Positions 7,385 through 34,284 of a stretch of 64,000 nt of DNA are shown one piece after another. The notes under the pieces are model-generated. The model was not told the DNA's origin, searched no databases, and was given only the letters and a program-made list of their open reading frames with translations. Numbering within the stretch: position 1 is the first letter of the stretch; the number at the start of each line of letters is the position of its first letter. This stretch comes from Thermoproteus sp. GTDB taxonomy: Archaea; Thermoproteota; Thermoprotei; Thermoproteales; Thermoproteaceae. The stretch covers positions 26,503 to 90,502 of the forward strand of contig JBMFIG010000004.1 of assembly GCA_049976425.1 (NCBI GenBank). The letters run 5' to 3'. The position numbers and the translations under genes were made by a program.

Positions 7385-8529
7385 CTATAAAAATACGGGA
7401 ACTCCTCTGAACTCCTCCACAAAGGCCTTGATCGCCTTTTCGTCCACGGGCCTCTTCCTTGCGGCGTAGTCCTTGACGCGCCTCAAGATATAGTCGACGA
7501 GCTCTGGGCTGGGCTCCAGCCCCATCTGCTTCAAGGCCCACTCGACGGAGTGCCTCCCCGAGTGCTTCCCCAGCACTATCCTCCTCCTGTTCCCCACGGC
7601 CTCGGGCATCATGGGCTCGTAGGTGAAGGGGTTGTTGAGGACGCCGTGGACGTGGATGCCGGACTCGTGGCTGAAGGCGTTGTCGCCCACGACTGCTTTG
7701 TTGGGCTGTAGCTGGATCCCGAAGAGCCTAGCCACCAGCCGCGACGTCTCGTAGAGCCGCTCCATCCTAAGGCCGACCTCGCGGCCCAGCAGAAAGCGGG
7801 CGGCGGCGGCCACCTCCTCCAGCGCCGCGTTGCCGCCCCTCTCGCCGAACCCGTTGACAGTGACTTGGGCCACCTCGGCGCCCGCCTCTATCGCGGCGAT
7901 GGTGTTGGCCACCGCCATGCCGAAGTCGTCGTGGCAGTGCACGTGCATGGGGACCGGCGGGAGCTCGGCCTTGAGGTGCTCCACCAGATACCTCATCCTG
8001 CTGGGCGTCATCACGCCGACGGTGTCGGGCACGTTTATCTCGTCGGCGCCTGCCTCTATCGCCGTTCTGAACGCCTCGACGAGGAAGCCCAAATCGCTCC
8101 TGGTGGCGTCCTCGGCGCTGAAGAGAACCCTAACCCCTCTGGACTTGGCGTACTCCACAGACTCAGCGATCCTCCGCAACACCTCGTCCCGCGTCATCCT
8201 CAGCTTGTACTTCATGTGTATATCGCTCGTCGCTATGAAGACGTGGACCATGTCCACATCGGCGTCGACGGCGGCGTCTATGTCGGCCTTGTTGGCCCGC
8301 GCCAGGCTGGCCACCTCTGAATACGCCGCGTCCCGCGCTATTCTCCTCACCGCCTCGGCCTCCTCGGGCGACACGGCCGCGAAGCCGGCCTCTATATAGT
8401 CCACCTTTAGTTCGTCCAACGCCATGCCTATCTGGACCTTCTCTTCGACGGTCAGAGAGATGCCGGGCATCTGTTCGCCGTCTCTGAGGGTGGTGTCGAA
8501 GAACCTCACCCGGTGAGCCCCGAATCCAT
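7385..8529 (-). CDS. leuA: 2-isopropylmalate synthase lacking the C-terminal regulatory domain; proposed start ATG 8529 with a -1 frameshift at about 8521-8518 (in-frame GTG at 8509 is an alternative start)
   Basis: [23 protein letters not shown] and HESGIH motifs; Leu codon in the leader supports the Leu-pathway assignment. Confidence 0.85.
8506..8529 (-). promoter_or_regulatory. leuA leader ORF MDSGLTG* with slip site TCG-GGG-CTC(Leu)
   Basis: ATG GAT TCG GGG CTC ACC GGG TGA; TTTTATATA at 8555-8547; -1 frame reads [17 protein letters not shown]. Confidence 0.8.
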
Positions 8530-22000: not shown

Positions 22001-22264
22001 TCATCGCCTCTCCCTCAACGCCACGGCCATCGCGGGCGCAGTCTGTAGCTTGCCTATCTCGAGGACCTCCGGCAGTTTGTCCAGCTTGGCCACCAGCCAG
22101 TTTATCTCGTCGGCCGGGCCCTCCACGTCCATAACTATGTGGTACGTCGAGTCCCTCGCCTCTATCTCCATGCGCCTCACGAACACCTTCGCCCTCCTCA
22201 CTATGCTGACGACCCTCCCGACGTAGTCCATCGAGGAGGGTATCCTTATGCTAATGGCGCTCAT
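22001..22264 (-). CDS. ilvN: ACT-domain acetolactate synthase small subunit
   Basis: 87 aa ACT-like protein (KLDKLPEV); overlaps the ilvB stop. Confidence 0.75.
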   Translation of the reverse strand: MSAISIRIPSSMDYVGRVVSIVRRAKVFVRRMEIEARDSTYHIVMDVEGPADEINWLVAKLDKLPEVLEIGKLQTAPAMAVALRERR

Positions 22265-24025
22265 ACCTCAACGACACGTCCTCCATCCCCTCGGGCAGAA
22301 TTGCTTGGGTTAGCCAATCGCCGGGCTTCACCCAAGGCAACACGATGTCCTTGTCCTCGTCTATGGTCACGTCTATCACTATAGGCTCGTTGTTCCTCAC
22401 AGCCCACGACACGGCCCTCTCCAGCTCCTCGTAGGTCGACGGCTTGACGCCCTCTATCCCGTAGGCCTCCGCTATCTTCAAGAAGTCGGGGTTCCTCGCG
22501 AACCTCACGGCGATCTGCCTATTGCCGTACATGTAGACCTGCCACTGCTTGACCAGCTGTAAGGACGCGTTGTCGAATATCACCTCGACAAAGGGCAGAT
22601 CGTACTCCCTCACCAGCGCGAGGTTGTTGAAGGTCATCTGGAACGACCCGTCGCCGTCTATACACACGACGGGCCTAGAGCGGTCGGCGAGCTTGGCGCC
22701 GAGAGCCGCAGGTATGCCGAAGCCCATCGTGCCCAGGCCGGCCGACGTTATGAAGGTCCCCGGCTCGTACACCTCCCACCAGATCTCCGACCACATCTGG
22801 TGTCCCCCCACGCCCGTCACGGTGACGGCGTTCGGCGGCGTGGCCCTCCTCACCGCCTTTAGCACCTTCCAGGGCGCGAAGTACTTGAACTTGCCGGCGG
22901 CCTTCTCCATGGCCTCTTCGTACCTCCTCCTGATCTCGTAAAGCCAGGCGAGGAACTTGGGGCTCCTCGCGGCGGCCGACGGCATTAGGTCCAGCATCTC
23001 CCTAAGAGCCTCCTTGGCGTCCGCTATTATGCCGACGGTGGGCTTCACGTTCTTCCCCACCTCGCTTCGGTCGATATCTATATGGATCAGCTTGACCTCG
23101 CCCGACCTAACCATCTCCTGGAGCTCCTTGAACCTCCCCCAAGTCCTGTCGCTGAACCTGGTCCCCACGGCCACCACCACGTCGGCGTTTGCCAAAGCCG
23201 CGTCCGCCTCGGCCCTCCCGTGCATCCCGGCCGGCCCCATATACAGCGGGTGGTTGTGGGGGATGGCGGCCTTCCCGGGCAAGGTCGACACGATGGGCGC
23301 ATTGAGCCTCTCGGCGAGCTCCAGCACCTCCTTGGTGGCGCCCGACCACAACACTCCGCCTCCCGCCAGCACCACCGGCCTCTCCGCCTCCAAGATCATC
23401 TTGACGGCCTTCGCCACGTCCTCCTCCCTGGGCTTGGGAGGTATGAACTTTGCCGCGTTTATCTGTATCTTGGCCTCGCCCCTATACTCCATCAGCTGGA
23501 GATCCCTCGGCAGATCCACCAAGGTCGGTCCGGGCCTCCCCAGCATCGAGATCTCGTAGGCGATCTTGACGGCGGCCGTGGCCTCCTCCGGCCTCTTCAC
23601 CTGGTACACCCACTTGGTTATAGGCGTCGCCACCCCCAATATGTCGGTCTCCTGGAACCCATCCCTCCCGAACACCCACGTGGCTACCTGCCCCGTTATC
23701 GCCGCGACGGGCACCGAGTCCATGTAGGCGTCGGTCAAGCCAGTCACCAAGTTCGTGGCGCCGGGGCCGCTCGTAGCGGCCACCACGGCGGGCCTCCCCG
23801 CTACTCTGGCGTAGCCCTCGGCTGCGTGCACGGCGCCCTGCTCGTGGCGGAACATGACCACCTCTATGTCGTCTACGAAATACGCCGCGTCGAATAGGGC
23901 CATTATAGAGCCGCCCGTTATTCCGAGGATGTGCCTTACCTTGAGCTCCCTAAGCGTGTCGATTATTCTGTCGACGACTCTATTGGGGCGATCCCCTCGA
24001 GCCCCGAAGCGACCCCCGAATCCAT
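22251..24025 (-). CDS. ilvB: Acetolactate synthase large subunit; proposed start ATG 24025 with a -1 frameshift in the leader
   Basis: [32 protein letters not shown] and DGDGSF; the only in-frame start (TTG 24032) lies upstream of the expected transcription start. Confidence 0.92.
23963..24025 (-). promoter_or_regulatory. ilvB leader [23 protein letters not shown] with three slip sites G-GGG-GTC(Val), G-GGG-CTC(Leu), G-GGG-ATC(Ile)
   Basis: ATG GAT TCG GGG GTC GCT TCG GGG CTC GAG GGG ATC ... TAA; TTTAAATA at 24052-24045. Confidence 0.85.
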
Positions 24026-24666: not shown

Positions 24667-24687
24667 ATGCGTTCGGGGAAAACGTAA
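24667..24687 (+). promoter_or_regulatory. Homocitrate synthase leader ORF MRSGKT* with slip site TCG-GGG-AAA(Lys)
   Basis: ATG CGT TCG GGG AAA ACG TAA; CTTAAATA at 24640-24647; -1 frame reads GENVKILDSTLREGEQ. Confidence 0.85.
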
Positions 24688-26060
24688 AGATCCTCGACTC
24701 GACGCTGAGGGAAGGCGAGCAGACCCCCGGCGTCGTCTTCTCCGAAGATTGGAGGATTAGGATCGCCAAGGCCCTCTCAGATGCCGGCGTCCACATGATA
24801 GAGGTGGGCGATCCCAACGTGGCGCCCGACATAAGGTCGGCCATAGCGAAGATAGTGGCCATGAAGAGAGACGGCGAGATAGCCGGCGAGATCGTGGCCC
24901 ACAGCAGATCGGTCAAGGCAGATATAGAGAACGCCGCGTCGCTCGAGCCCGACAGGGTGGCTATATTCTACGGCGTGAGCGACATACACTTGAAGCACAA
25001 GCACAGGAAGTCGAGGGAGGAGGCCCTGTCCATAATTGCGGAGCACGTGGAGTTCGCGAGGAGCCACGGAGTGCGCGTGAGGTTCACTGCCGAGGACGCC
25101 ACGCGGGCCGACCCCGACTACTTAATACAGGTGGTCAAGACGGCGAGGGATGCGGGAGCCGACAGGGTGAGCATCGCCGACACCGTGGGTATCTTGACGC
25201 CCGAGAAGGCGCGGCGGCTGTTCGCCGAGGTCAAGGAGGCCGTGCCCGACGTGGGGCTCGACATACACGCCCACAACGACCTCGGCATGGCGGTGGCCAA
25301 CTCCTTGGCGGCCGTCGAGGGGGGAGCCGACGTGGTCCACACGACGGTGAACGGCCTCGGCGAGAGGGCAGGGATAACGCCGCTCCAGACGTTCGCCGCG
25401 GCGTACTACTACCACAGGGGGGTGAAGCTGATAGATCTGACTAAGTTGCCCTACCTGGCCTCCTTGGTGGAGGCGGCCAGCGGCATAGCGCAGATGCCCA
25501 CGTTCCCCGTGACCGGCGACAACGCCTTCACGCACAAGGCCGGGGTCCACCAGGCCGGCGTGTTGGCGAGCCCCGAGACCTACGAGCCGTTCCCTCCCGA
25601 GGTGGTGGGCCGCACGAGGGACTTCTCGTTGGACAAATACAGCGGGAGGAAGGCCGTCGCCCACAGGCTCGAGAGGCTCGGCGTCAAGGTCGACGAGGAG
25701 GTCTTGGGGAAGCTCGTGGAGGAGCTGAAGTCCACCAACGCGCGGAGGCTACGCGACGAGGATCTCCTCGAGATGTTGGAGAAGATAACCGGGATGAGGT
25801 ACAGGGCGCAGGTCAACAAGCACATAGAGGCGTACGTCTGGGTGAAAGTCGACGAGAACGTCTACACGACGTCGGTGGCCAGGAGGATCATGGCGATAAG
25901 GGGCGTGACCGGCGTCGGCGAGGTGACGGGCGAGTTCGACATAGTGGCCAAGATATCGGCCGAGAACGCCGAGGAGCTGAACAGGATAATCGAGGAGGTG
26001 AGGGCCGTCAAGGGCGTCAAGTCGACGCTCACCAATATAGTCCTGAAACAGCTTTCATAA
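24667..26060 (+). CDS. Homocitrate synthase with C-terminal Lrp/AsnC (RAM) domain; start ATG 24667 requires a -1 frameshift at 24675-24678
   Basis: DSTLREGEQ motif lies upstream of the first in-frame ATG (24795); HAHNDLG, GLGERAG and HKAGVH; C-terminal VTGEFDIVAKI RAM domain as in Sulfolobus HCS. Confidence 0.88.
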
Positions 26061-28936: not shown

Positions 28937-30159
28937 TTATTTCTTATCCATAGATCTTTTACTTAACGCCGTCAAGCTATGTAGCGACCACATCTCTATG
29001 AACCCCCTCGCCTCCTCGTCGGTCGGGTACCACCCCTTGGAGTAGTCCGCCAGCTCCTTGCTGTAGGTGCCGTATTTGGAGTCCCTGGCGACTATCTGCA
29101 CAGATCCCTTGTAGAGCTTCGCCTTCACCCACCCGTCGACCCACCTCTCCATCTCGCCGGCGGCCGCCTCGATGGCGAGCCTGAGCGGCTCCACCCACAG
29201 CCCCTGGTAGACTAGGTCTGCCCAGTAGGGGTCGAGGACGTTGTGCTTGAACCTGAGCTCCCTCGGCGTGAGGACCAGCTTCTCGAGATCCCTATGCGAC
29301 TCGAAGAGTATGACCGCGGCGGGGGCCTCGTACACCTCTCTGCTCTTGAAGCCCACCAGCCTGCTCTCGATGTGGTCTATCCTCCCGACCCCCGCGGCTC
29401 CGCCTATCTGGTTAAGCGCCTTCACGAGGGAGAGCATGTCCATGCGCTCGCCGTTGATAGCCCTAGGCAGGCCCCCCTCGAACTCTATCTCCACGTAGGT
29501 TGGCTGGTCGGGCGCCTTCTCGGGCTGGACGGTCCACTTGAAGGCGTCCTCGGGCGGCTCGAGCCTCTGGTCGTCGACGGGCCCTCCCTCTATGGAGCGG
29601 CTCCAGAGGTTCTCGTCTATGCTGTACTTCTTGTGGGCCTCCGGCACAGGTATGCCGTGCTTCTTGGCGTACTCGATCTCCTGCTCCCTGCCCATGCCCC
29701 AAACCCTCGCGGGGGCCAACACCTCCAAGTCGGGCGCAAGGGCCTTTGCGGTGACGTCGAAACGGACCTGGTCGTTTCCCTTGCTGGTGCTCCCGTGGGC
29801 TATGGCGTCAGCCCCCTCGCGCCTCGCCACCTCGACGGTCTTCGCGACAATCAGCGGCCTGGCCAACGCAGTGCCTAGGGGGTACTTCCCCTCGTACATG
29901 GCGTTCATGAGGACGGCCCTGCCGACGTACTCCTCGGCGAATTCCCTCTTGGCGTCTATGGTGTAGTGCTTGACCGCGCCGGCCTTATAGGCCCTCGCCT
30001 CGACCTCCGAGAAGTCCTCCTCCTGCCCTACGTCGACCGTGACCGTGATAACCTCGGCGTTGTACTTCTCCGAGAGCCACTTGATGGCGACCGTGGTGTC
30101 GAGCCCGCCCGAGTAGGCGAGCGCGATCCTGCTTATTCTCGCCCCGACTTACTCGCCAT
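28937..30159 (-). CDS. argG: Argininosuccinate synthase; proposed start ATG 30159 with a -1 frameshift at about 30145-30142
   Basis: N-terminal LAYSGGLDT motif is in frame but has no ATG/GTG/TTG before it; YPLGTALARP, HGSTSKGNDQVRF and KSREVYEAP. Confidence 0.92.
30133..30159 (-). promoter_or_regulatory. argG leader ORF MASKSGRE* with slip site TCG-GGG-CGA(Arg)
   Basis: ATG GCG AGT AAG TCG GGG CGA GAA TAA; ATG overlaps the lysW 3' end after a purine-rich tract; -1 frame reads GARISRIALAYSGGLDT. Confidence 0.85.
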
Positions 30160-30334
30160 AGTCCTCCACATCCCCCTTGAACTCCTCTAGGGTTACCGAG
30201 CCGCCCTTGAGCCTCACAATATACCGGGTCCCGCACGTGGGGCAACTGGCTATCTCGCCGTCCATCACGTCCTCCGGCAACTCGAACTCCGTGCCGCAGA
30301 CCTTGCACTGGACCACCAGCTTTTGGGTTGCCAT
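30149..30334 (-). CDS. lysW: Amino-group carrier protein LysW
   Basis: 61 aa; CKVCG...GEIASCPTCG zinc ribbon; C-terminal EDYGE (canonical EDWGE). Confidence 0.92.
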   Translation of the reverse strand: MATQKLVVQCKVCGTEFELPEDVMDGEIASCPTCGTRYIVRLKGGSVTLEEFKGDVEDYGE

Positions 30335-31444: not shown

Positions 31445-32224
31445 CTACCCGACCACGTGGGTCCCCGCGCCGTTGAGGGCAACATCTATGGGGGCCTCCA
31501 CCAAGCCGCTGGATATTATCACCTCGATCCCGGCCTTGGCGGCCTCTGCGGCCATCAACAGCTTCCTCTTCATGCCGCCTTTGACCTCCTCGTTCTGGAC
31601 AAGCCGCTCCGCCTCTTCGGCCGTGAGGCGCGGCACCACCCTCCCGCCGATATAGAGGCCCTCGACGTCGCTGAGGAGCACCAGCTTCTCGGCGCCTGTC
31701 CTTTTGGCCACGTCGAACGCCAGCTGGTCGCCGTCTATGTTCAGGAGCTCGCCCCTCTCCGACACGGCGATGGGGGCCAGCACCCTCAACGGCGGCGGCG
31801 CCAGCTTGGAGGCGTCTATCTCTGTTATACGGCCCACGTAGCCCCCGTCCACGACCCTCTGCCTCCCCCTCTCGTCGACCACCAGCACCTTCTCCTTGCG
31901 CTTGGCCCTCACCACGCCTAGATCGGCCCCGGTTAGGCCCAGCGCCGGCACGCCCATGCCGTGTAGCGAGGCGACTATGGACTTGTTTATCCAGCTCATG
32001 GCCATGACGAAGGCCTTTAAGGTCTCCCAGTCCGTGTAGCGGCTTACGAGCCCGCCGGGGTGCGTGAGGAATTTCGGCTCTATCCCCATCCTCTTCATCA
32101 ACTCGTTGACAAGACACCCCCCGCCGTGGACCACGACCGCCTTGTCGGCGTATTTGGGCAGGTTGCGGATCGCCATCGAGGCGTCCTTGCAGATAACGGA
32201 TCCTCCTATCTTGATCACGATCAT
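31445..32224 (-). CDS. lysZ: [LysW]-aminoadipate/[LysW]-glutamate kinase
   Basis: [32 protein letters not shown] and GGMKRKL. Confidence 0.92.
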
Positions 32225-33276
32225 ATGGGGTGGGGAGGTATGTACCTAAGCCCTTGATCCTCGGGGAACCCCGCCGCTATGTTGAACGCCTGCACGGCCT
32301 GCCCGGCGGCCCCGCGCACCAAGTTGTCTATGGCCGAGAACGCGACGACCCTCCTCATCCTGGGATCTATCTCGAAGCCCACGTCGACTATGTTGGTGCC
32401 CAGTACATATTTTATATTTGGATAGCGCGCTAGGCCCAGCTTGTCCTTCACGATCCTCACGAACTTCGAGTCGCCGTACATGGCCCTATACGCCTTCCAC
32501 AACGTCGGCTCGTCCACGTCGCGTTCGGTGAACACGTGCGCCGTGGAGAGTATGCCCCTCACGGCGTCGACGGCGTGCGGCGTGTAGGCCACCCTCACCT
32601 CCCTCCCCGCAAGCCGCGAGAGCTCCTGCTCCACCTCCGCCGCGTGTCTGTGGTGAACCGGCTCGTAGGGCCTTATGACGTAGGTGCGGTGGCTGTGCAT
32701 GTCGAGGACCGACCCCTCGGCCCCGGCGCCTGAGGAGCCCATCTTCACGTCGATTACCGGCGGGAGGGGGCCTAGAAGCCCGTATTTGGCCAGAGGCGCG
32801 AGCGCCATTATGGATGCAGTGGCGGTGCACCCGGGAGACGCTATGAGCTTGGCGCCGGGTAGCTCGTCCTTGTGCAGTTCGGGGAGGCCGTAAACCGCCT
32901 TCTTCAAGAGATCGGGGTAGGGATGCGGCTGCGGCCACTTATACCACTCCACGTAGGCGTTGGGATCCTTCAGCCTGAAGTCGGCCGACAGGTCGACCAC
33001 CATGAGGCCGTGCTCGTACAGCTGGGGGACCCACTTGACCGACTCGCCGTGGGGAAGCGCCAGGAAGACCACGTCGGCCTTCAACGCGGCGTCGATGCTG
33101 GGCTCCACGAACTTGAGGTTTGTGAATCCCCTGAGGTTTGGGTGGATCCTGTAGACGTACTCCCCCTTGAACTTCCTAGAGGTGGCGCAGACTATCTCGA
33201 CCCCTCCGTGCTGTAGCAAGATGCGCAACAGCTCTCCGCCGGTGAATCCGGAGGCCCCCACTACGCAAGCCTTCAT
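32221..33276 (-). CDS. lysY: [LysW]-aminoadipyl/glutamyl-phosphate reductase (ArgC family)
   Basis: [34 protein letters not shown] and [12 protein letters not shown]. Confidence 0.93.
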
Positions 33277-33958
33277 GCCTCCTCCAGCCCGACCTCGGCC
33301 AGGAGCCTCGCCCTAGCCTCGTCCAGCTCCGGCACGGGGTCTACGTCTATCACGCGCTCCCCGTCGTCGTAGACGCCGAGCGTGATCTCAGCGTACTTGA
33401 GGCCCAGCGACCTCAACACCTCGCCCGCTATCCCGTCGATCCCGGGCACGGCGAACACCTTCCTGACCTCTCTGGGCTTGGGCATGGCGATGCTACCCTT
33501 GGCCAGGGGGTTCCTCATGTAGTTGCGGTGCTCCACGACGCTTTTGGCCCCCTCTACGCTAGTCACCGACACGTCTAGGCCCAGGCGCCAGACGGTCGCG
33601 AGGAGCCACGGCGGCTTGAAGTCCACCTTCTCCACGGCCTCCTCGTCGGAGAACACGAAGAAGTGGGGGCCGTATTTGGGCAACCAGTACAGCCTATTGA
33701 GCGCGTTGTATATGGCGTATGAGGGGTTTATCGATCTGCGGAACAGGGAGGCGTACACAGCGCCGAGGTACTGGTTCCTCGTCCTTATGAAGACGGTGAA
33801 GTCCCCGCCCTCGACATGTCCCTGGGATATATCGAGGATATCGGCATGCGCGCCGCGGGCCGATAGGAGCTTGGCGAGAAGCCTCTCGCCTAGCTCGGGC
33901 TTCTCGGATAGTATGAGTATCCTCGCCCCGTTGGCCCCGCTTTCCCCGCAAGGTCCAT
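33273..33958 (-). CDS. Degenerate LysX/ArgX (RimK ATP-grasp)-like protein, about 228 aa; start ATG 33958 requires a -1 frameshift
   Basis: Open frame RILILSEKPELGERLL...FIRT...SINPSYAI..ALNR...IDVDPVPEL parallels LysX (IN...I...D; EVN.VPEF); first gene of the lysY-lysZ operon with ATGA overlap. Confidence 0.6.
33890..33958 (-). promoter_or_regulatory. Leader ORF MDLAGKAGPTGRGYSYYPRSPS* with three slip sites G-GGG-AAA(Lys), G-GGG-CCA(Pro), G-GGG-CGA(Arg)
   Basis: ATG GAC CTT GCG GGG AAA GCG GGG CCA ACG GGG CGA ... TAG; TTTATATA at 33986-33979. Confidence 0.85.
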
Positions 33959-34017
33959 ATAGGCTGGGCTGGGGACTATATATAAACTTAACGGGCTATT
34001 ACGCAAAAACCGATTTC

Positions 34018-34284
34018 TCAGTTGCCTATCGCCTTTCTCTGTAGCCACTTGGCGTACATTATCATGAATACGTCTGCGTTGTGTTTTCCTACGGCTTTGG
34101 ATAGGGCTTGGTAAATCTCGTCGGGTTTTTCTAGGGCTATCTCCTCGAAGGTCTTCCCCAAGACTCTAGCCAGCCTCACGTCCAGCACAGCCCTATAGCT
34201 GTTATCCAGAGAGCTGTAGAACTCCAACAACCTCCCTCTAGACATCCTCACATCACCAGCCCAAGTCCTCACAACCGCCGTCAT
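34018..34284 (-). CDS. Small helical hypothetical protein
   Basis: 88 aa ORF with an upstream TTTTTAAA box. Confidence 0.6.
   Translation of the reverse strand: MTAVVRTWAGDVRMSRGRLLEFYSSLDNSYRAVLDVRLARVLGKTFEEIALEKPDEIYQALSKAVGKHNADVFMIMYAKWLQRKAIGN

Follow-up and report, generated by a model that had tools for sequence, protein, structure and literature searches.

In the autoregulatory frameshift of bacterial release factor 2 (RF2, prfB), a short first frame carries the only start codon and the functional frame lies elsewhere without a start, and the P-site tRNA slips onto an identical triplet while the A-site codon awaits a scarce decoder, which makes the site both sensor and effector. Frameshifts of this sensor-effector class are described in the relevant sections of PMC5009743. 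In this work, we analyzed a stretch of 64,000 nucleotides (the 64-kb window) from contig JBMFIG010000004.1 of Thermoproteus sp. and found on its minus strand a short leader of the same architecture, which, judging from its sequence, is quite probably a programmed -1 ribosomal frameshift that acts as an amino-acid sensor and gates an operon made up of a lysX-like gene, lysY and lysZ. The differences from RF2 are clear as well. In RF2 a stop codon waits to be recognised by the release factor, whereas here a sense codon would await its aminoacyl-tRNA; the RF2 shift is +1, whereas here it would be -1 on G_GGG (and +1 on CCC_C in a proC-like gene and hisG); and here up to three sensors are arranged in series, with about twenty operons carrying the device.

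Leftward frameshifting at "hungry" codons, known from the E. coli laboratory constructs of Gallant and Lindsley, is an error that starvation provokes in test genes, whereas the site considered here is conserved and precedes biosynthetic genes that apparently need it in order to be expressed. According to the relevant sections of a 2021 review (PMC8211752), the one-tRNA "hungry" route has been established as a way in which -1 shifts arise when aminoacyl-tRNA is limiting, and fucA1 of Saccharolobus solfataricus is the only reported archaeal -1 case. Our locus would share with fucA1 that a cellular gene of an archaeon is expressed through a -1 shift, but the sites at our locus lie within the first 11 codons and consist of G_GGG. 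The fucA1 shift joins two long open reading frames (ORFs) at an A-rich heptamer in mid-gene, and we know of no claim of amino-acid sensing for it. The third likeness is to bacterial trp, his and ilv attenuation and to T-box leaders, in which end-product codons read by the ribosome (or by a tRNA) set the expression of biosynthetic or synthetase genes; bacterial ilv leaders list Val, Leu and Ile, as does an ilvB leader described below. In contrast to these systems, the leader studied here has no terminator or antiterminator, no separate start for the structural gene and only single codons, and its read-out would be a change of frame. To our knowledge, little is established about how archaea adjust amino-acid synthesis and tRNA charging to the supply, and no archaeal counterpart of attenuation or of the T-box has been described.

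The leader of the lysX-like operon

The leader frame (33890..33958, minus strand) begins with an ATG at 33958-33956, runs for 22 codons that read MDLAGKAGPTGRGYSYYPRSPS and ends with a TAG stop at 33892-33890; it is the only frame with a start codon. The TATA box of the promoter, TTTATATATA, was read directly at 33977..33986 on the same strand, with its first T 28 nucleotides (nt) upstream of the ATG. A sequence-only reading of this DNA had pointed to a 27-nt repeat of 9-nt period with Lys, Pro and Arg codons, and the span it gave turned out to be exactly this small ORF on the minus strand. The repeat is real and occupies 33949..33923 in the frame of the ATG. Direct reading resolves it into three modules: GCG, GGG, AAA at 33941..33949, in which the slip site G_GGG is followed by a Lys codon in the A site; GCG, GGG, CCA at 33932..33940, with a Pro codon in the A site; and ACG, GGG, CGA at 33923..33931, with an Arg codon in the A site (all on the minus strand). 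Thus, each 9-nt unit consists of NNG, GGG and then AAA, CCA or CGA, together filling leader codons 4 to 12, and the nine-base period arises because each module is three codons long. In all three modules GGG is preceded by a G, so that the P-site codon can re-pair perfectly in the -1 frame. The pattern GGGG-N5-GGGG-N5-GGGG has one match in the window against 0.04 expected, and at least one match was obtained in 3 of 100 shuffles. Tandem Repeats Finder, run on 33700-34100 with a minimum score of 30, reported no array, because the units share just 6 of 9 bases and are too short and too loose for it.

The -1 frame of the leader (33273..33947, minus strand), which the sequence-only reading had taken to open the lysX-like ORF, is indeed open from 33995 to its TGA stop at 33275-33273, and its product has a LysX/ArgX fold in a structural model. 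The first ATG, GTG or TTG in this frame is the GTG at 33758; although there is no start upstream of it, the residues encoded from 33926 on, where a body of about 217 amino acids (aa) begins, are conserved across the family.

The mechanism we propose, which the sequence-only reading had not specified, is as follows. The message would be leaderless, and ribosomes would be able to start only at the ATG at 33958. The leader frame would then present three back-to-back modules of NNG, GGG and AAA, CCA or CGA. With tRNA-Gly on GGG in the P site and Lys-, Pro- or Arg-tRNA scarce, the A site would stay empty, the peptidyl-tRNA-Gly would slip back by one base onto the identical G-GG triplet, and translation would go on in the -1 frame, yielding the LysX/ArgX-fold protein and then, via overlapping stops and starts, lysY and lysZ. 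If Lys, Pro and Arg were all plentiful, the ribosome would keep its frame and terminate after 22 codons. The three modules would thereby act as an OR gate whose inputs are lysine, proline and arginine, all of them products for which LysZ/LysY is needed. We infer the slip itself and its dependence on tRNA charging from what is observed in the DNA, namely the anatomy, its conservation, the absence of another start and the agreement, seen across the genome, of sensor codons with the functions of the genes they precede.

Conservation was assessed in 27 Thermoproteus/Pyrobaculum loci and two loci of a third genus, which together represent 29 genomes of the family. An out-of-frame ATG, +1 relative to the enzyme frame and 25-28 nt after the start of the TATA box, is present in 27/27 Thermoproteus/Pyrobaculum loci. 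Judged by the usual archaeal spacing between TATA box and start, this distance fits a leaderless message whose 5' end coincides with the ATG or lies beside it. According to work cited in the relevant part of PMC6028130, transcripts in Pyrobaculum are as a rule leaderless. The modules follow the order Lys-Pro-Arg in 9 loci of one genus and Pro-Lys-Arg in 15 of the other; the exceptions among the 27 are one locus without the Lys unit, one with GGA for GGG before CCA, and one with the Pro unit only. The codon after G_GGG is AAA in 25/27 loci, CCA in 26/27 and CGA in 26/27, and never a synonym. The sequence-only reading had named loss of the Pro site in relatives as evidence against itself; CCA after GGG or GGA was found in 27/27 loci, and the strict form G_GGG-CCA in 26/27. 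There is no in-frame start upstream of the last module in 20/27 loci. In the third genus (2/2 loci) a plain in-frame ATG directly precedes the conserved body and the repeat is absent, which indicates that the protein does not need the N-terminal extension and that the purpose of the latter lies in its nucleotides. Retention of the out-of-frame ATG and of the modules in 27/27 loci of two genera makes the leader more than a product of chance.

The same comparison bears on the most trivial explanation, an assembly error or a decaying gene, to which we assign practically no probability. The window does come from a 96-contig assembly, and G runs are error-prone in some sequencing chemistries, but the identical frame offset recurs in 27 independent genomes, single-contig ones among them, and the downstream frame is intact and conserved; a layout kept across 27 loci excludes an assembly error.

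The RNA that follows the modules was also considered. A predicted fold of 109 nt at the leader has a z score of -1.72 and contains a hairpin that begins about 25 nt after module 3. An inverted repeat at about 33868-33897 (minus strand) corresponds to this hairpin and lies where the leader frame ends. A short leader with end-product codons and a downstream hairpin is what one would expect of leader-peptide attenuation of the bacterial type, in which stalling within the leader alters an RNA structure able to terminate transcription or to hide a start. However, the structural gene here overlaps the leader and lacks a start codon of its own, each amino acid appears as one codon and not as a run, the fold is not unusual, and an Rfam search of 33600-34150 at E values up to 1 gave no matches, so we regard attenuation as having very little chance of being correct.

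Cognate codons at other genes

The evidence that best connects the codons to amino-acid supply comes from the rest of the genome, which was scanned for short frames that contain G_GGG and begin with an ATG downstream of a TATA-like box, the -1 frame being open over a long stretch. A strict version of the scan gave 11 cases of G_GGG with a -1 shift and without an in-frame start, and seven combinations of base and direction that served as controls yielded 0-5 cases each. A relaxed version gave 34 TATA-preceded rows, of which 16 (this locus included) are amino-acid biosynthesis or tRNA-synthetase genes, identified with NCBIfam, and in these the codon after G_GGG is always cognate to the gene. Those outside the window (loci L041-L052, on contigs C2, C3, C7, C8, C9, C10, C14, C15, C18, C30 and C36) are thrC with ACA (Thr), the transketolase N-terminal subunit with TAC and TGG (Tyr, Trp), a trpB-like gene with TGG (Trp), the citramalate synthase gene cimA with ATC (Ile), trpE with TGG (Trp), a cysteine-synthase-like gene (cysK/M-like) with TGC (Cys), cysS with TGT (Cys), trpS with TGG (Trp), ileS with ATT (Ile), carA with CGA (Arg), lysX with AAA (Lys) and pheA with TTC (Phe).

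Three further cases lie within the window. The isopropylmalate synthase gene (8521..7385; TIGR02090, 512 bits) has a leader of 7 codons at 8529 on the minus strand with CTC (Leu). ilvB, for the large subunit of acetolactate synthase (23996..22251), is preceded at 24025 on the minus strand by a leaderless ATG frame with three G_GGG modules carrying GTC, CTC and ATC (Val, Leu, Ile). The homocitrate synthase gene (24675..26060; TIGR02146, 514.5 bits), which is transcribed divergently from ilvB and encodes a LysM/RAM-like C-terminal domain, has a leader of 6 codons at 24667 on the plus strand with AAA (Lys). A 17th case is argG (30148..28937; 403 aa; NF001770, 541.7 bits), with CGA (Arg) in a leader at 30133-30159 on the minus strand. 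The argG frame has no start codon and begins right after the lysW stop, and a 9-codon frame from an ATG inside the last lysW codons holds G_GGG and then CGA; the region of the essential N-terminal motif of ArgG is encoded in this startless frame, and a plain ORF list calls the gene 80 codons short.

These marks are also kept in relatives. The argG leader has G_GGG-CGA in 26/26 Thermoproteus/Pyrobaculum loci, either overlapping lysW or behind a TATA box of its own, and in the third genus argG has a plain ATG. The ilvB leader holds Leu in 28/28 loci and Val plus Leu in 27/28, across all three genera, with Ile in 14, and the Ile mark of ileS is present in 22/27 loci. The chance of the first sensor being cognate in all 16 other genes is about 10^-22.7, a figure for which the accepted sets of amino acids were fixed after the data had been seen. 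The Lys, Pro and Arg codons of our locus, which the sequence-only reading had called sensors, thus appear to behave as such, in line with the cognate codons after G_GGG at these 16 other genes.

The cognate codons also bear on two explanations that leave amino-acid supply out. In the first, which we find rather unlikely, the -1 shift at G_GGG occurs at a fixed ratio and rare codons merely slow the ribosome. In the organism's own genome Lys is encoded by AAA in 16% of cases, and CCA and CGA are the rarest codons for Pro (5%) and Arg (3%), so a pause would be expected even in replete cells. Nevertheless, a mere pause site needs no cognate codon, the codon after G_GGG matches the pathway or synthetase in 16 other genes, and several of these codons are common (CTC is 35% of Leu codons). 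In the second, RNA polymerase adds one G in the GGGG run and so brings the ATG in frame with the enzyme; the effect on the frame would be the same, but the cognate codons are left unexplained, and the known sites of transcriptional slippage are much longer homopolymer runs than GGGG, which makes this explanation highly improbable. Transcriptional slippage is reviewed in the relevant sections of PMC5009743.

Two further genes show a related layout on CCC. In hisG (C45:3876-4746; L117, L118), the leader ATG frame has CCC and then CAT (His), with the enzyme in the +1 frame, and this is kept in 26/29 genomes. The CAT shares bases with an in-frame ATG in Pyrobaculum and in the third genus, and a TTG follows in 7/9 Thermoproteus loci, so internal initiation is an alternative for hisG. 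The other gene is proC-like and is treated with proline below.

Several observations weigh against a starvation-dependent frameshift and have to be set beside the evidence above. The support for it is wholly comparative; among public sequencing runs, two DNA metagenome runs of a single study were listed for the window, one of which contains the stretch, and no RNA run. In-frame G_GGG is not avoided in 955 long ORFs (3592 observed against 3225 expected, a ratio of 1.11), which means that the site is not strongly slippery alone and that starvation or position must matter; all the sensors lie within the first 11 codons, and this position may be relevant to slipping. The motif is not a classical X_XXY_YYZ heptamer, and after the -1 move AAA, CCA and CGA face GAA, GCC and GCG, with a mismatch at the first position. 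A classical -1 site also has a stable structure 5-9 nt downstream; here the hairpin of the fold mentioned above, which begins about 25 nt after module 3 and was seen at a single locus, is no more than a candidate for a stimulator. ARAGORN found 16 tRNA genes without introns and 29 when introns were allowed, a clearly incomplete set with odd calls, too incomplete to bear on tRNA-Gly(CCC), tRNA-Lys(UUU), tRNA-Pro(UGG) or tRNA-Arg(UCG). Judged by layout, the other 17 of the 34 TATA-preceded rows of the relaxed scan look like chance; in most of them a long distance separates the site from the ATG, or the target frame extends over a short stretch. One of them, a metallo-beta-lactamase (MBL)-fold hydrolase gene (L053, C52:4012-5009), shows every element of the G_GGG/-1 layout, with CCT (Pro) as the marked codon and without an in-frame start, but has no known link to amino acids. 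Moreover, argS and proS have ordinary starts, which indicates that not every related gene is under frameshift control. Finally, in 7/27 loci of the lysX-like gene an ATG, GTG or TTG does precede the modules in the enzyme frame, either within the TATA region, shortly behind it or at a greater distance upstream; we presume that these starts are not transcribed or not used.

These upstream starts lend some support to the idea that there is no frameshift, that the enzyme frame begins at a non-canonical or unrecognised start, and that the GGGG repeat serves as an operator for a protein or as an element that binds the ribosome, with the small ORF being incidental. The GTG found three codons after GGGG in Thermoproteus ileS and the in-frame ATG that overlaps the marked codon in Pyrobaculum hisG could be read in the same way. 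On the other hand, the in-frame start is absent in 20/27 loci while the out-of-frame ATG stands at leaderless distance in all 27, the essential motif region of ArgG lies in a frame without a start, and an operator leaves unexplained the choice of codon after GGGG, which specifies the amino acid that belongs to the gene. We therefore consider an explanation without frameshift quite improbable.

Taken as a regulon of Thermoproteus/Pyrobaculum, the data make it reasonably likely that the ribosome measures individual aminoacyl-tRNAs through NNG-GGG-sensor modules in the first 11 codons of mostly leaderless messages, with a -1 slip (in proC and perhaps hisG a +1 slip on CCC_C) when the cognate tRNA is short, and that proline is made via LysZ/LysY.

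The downstream operon and the origin of proline

The sequence-only reading had placed the leader at the head of an operon of the lysX-like gene, lysY and lysZ, and this is borne out by the genes downstream. lysY (argC family; 32221..33276, minus strand) scores 407.9 bits with TIGR01850 against a cut-off of 233.6, and its ATG shares bases with the stop codon of the gene before it (ATGA). lysZ, the kinase for [LysW]-aminoadipate/[LysW]-glutamate (31445..32224, minus strand), scores 270.9 bits with NF010662 against a cut-off of 194, and its ATG overlaps the lysY stop in the same manner (ATGA). Through these overlapping stops and starts, translation of the enzyme frame is probably coupled to that of lysY and lysZ. 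The LysW-pathway carrier is encoded nearby by lysW (30334..30152, minus strand), which was noticed by eye upstream of argG; it scores 35.9 with PF21344 (cut-off 27) and 63.8 with NF041070 (below the cut-off of 75), and a whole-genome search with TIGR01206 at E 0.001 as well as a regular expression of our own came back empty. Thus, the carrier and the bifunctional kinase and reductase (lysZ, lysY) are all present in the window. A query of the genome with the lysS_arch family gave no match.

The protein of the enzyme frame is present in 29/29 genomes of the family. No Pfam or NCBIfam family matched it, and a search of its profile against PDB sequences reached LysX just at E 1.4, which is chance level. 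Among 5.8 billion proteins, 21 relatives were found, the named ones being "hypothetical protein" of Thermoproteus/Pyrobaculum, and the called starts of its database homologues vary over some 80 residues. An AlphaFold model built on 23 family sequences reached a confidence (pLDDT) of 94.7, and its top Foldseek matches are the LysX/ArgX structures 5k2m, 3vpb, 3vpc and 3vpd (TM on query 0.80-0.85, with 0.83-0.85 for the best two, 5k2m and 3vpb; E about 1e-14), so that according to the model "lysX-like" is correct for the fold. The likeness to the LysX/ArgX ATP-grasp ligases (5k2m, 3vpb, 3vpd) thus consists in the best fold match and the position next to lysY and lysZ, while the 217-aa protein is about 60 residues shorter and only 14-18% identical. 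Alignment with the LysX of its own genome by hhalign was collinear and weak (probability 12%, E 0.0024), with two LysX stretches unmatched. The shorter protein may be a non-catalytic relative. Four other RimK-family genes are above cut-off in the genome, and no sensors were seen at three further RimK-family genes.

The sequence-only reading had also predicted that proline is made from LysW-derived ornithine by an ornithine cyclodeaminase (OCD), with proA and proB missing. Neither proA nor proB is above family cut-offs in the genome, where the best match to proB is lysZ itself, and two OCD-family genes are present. The part of the prediction that gains support is that proline is made through LysZ/LysY, for which there are two proline marks, one on the operon and one on the proC-like gene; the link to OCD is not specifically indicated. 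Both OCD-family genes have ordinary starts and no sensor. The proC-like gene (pyrroline-5-carboxylate reductase family; L040, C5:77163-77877; P5CR_dimer 63.4 bits; TIGR00112 128 bits, below cut-off) is headed by a leaderless ATG whose frame is -1 to that of the enzyme and holds CCC and then CCA, which would allow a +1 slip on CCC_C, and this is kept in 22/23 genomes; several of the loci have no in-frame start, and others have a GTG nearby. Because the OCD genes lack a sensor and the proC-like gene has a proline mark, the sensor logic favours glutamate semialdehyde/pyrroline-5-carboxylate (P5C) and ProC at least as much as OCD. These marks would support a supply of proline through LysZ/LysY in which the link is glutamate semialdehyde/P5C, either released from LysW or made from ornithine. 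The OCD route itself is not a new proposal, since the relevant section of PMC3189178 put forward the conversion of ornithine to proline for Thermoproteus tenax from its genome.

Distribution and meaning in the family

As far as sampled, the device appears to be confined to the Thermoproteus/Pyrobaculum family. The ileS starts in 20 sampled genomes of other families of the class include none with the G_GGG layout, and nothing recognisable was seen at one Desulfurococcales ilvB locus (L184). In the sister family of the order (L186-L199), ileS opens with an in-frame GTG about 25-30 nt after the TATA box, followed by a conserved TCT, a variable codon, ATT and GAT; the Ile codon there is at position 4, and there is no change of frame. 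No account of such leaders or of amino-acid-sensing archaeal frameshifts was found in the portions of the literature searched, the scope of which left out subscription journals and supplements.

If our interpretation is true, archaeal cellular -1 frameshifts would rise from the one reported case given in the relevant sections of PMC8211752 to dozens. Hungry-codon slippage, known as a laboratory error, would have been turned into a regular switch, and the archaea would have a counterpart of bacterial attenuation and T-box control that works on a different principle. Gene starts miscalled by annotation pipelines would be corrected, as for the 217-aa protein and argG. The lists of sensor codons would also offer a new way to read metabolic wiring, that is, which products depend on a gene, and the Lys/Pro/Arg list on the lysY-lysZ operon together with the proline mark on proC would amount to a testable statement about the missing ProB/ProA steps. 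For the family as a whole, one small and easily recognised element would explain the control of about twenty operons.

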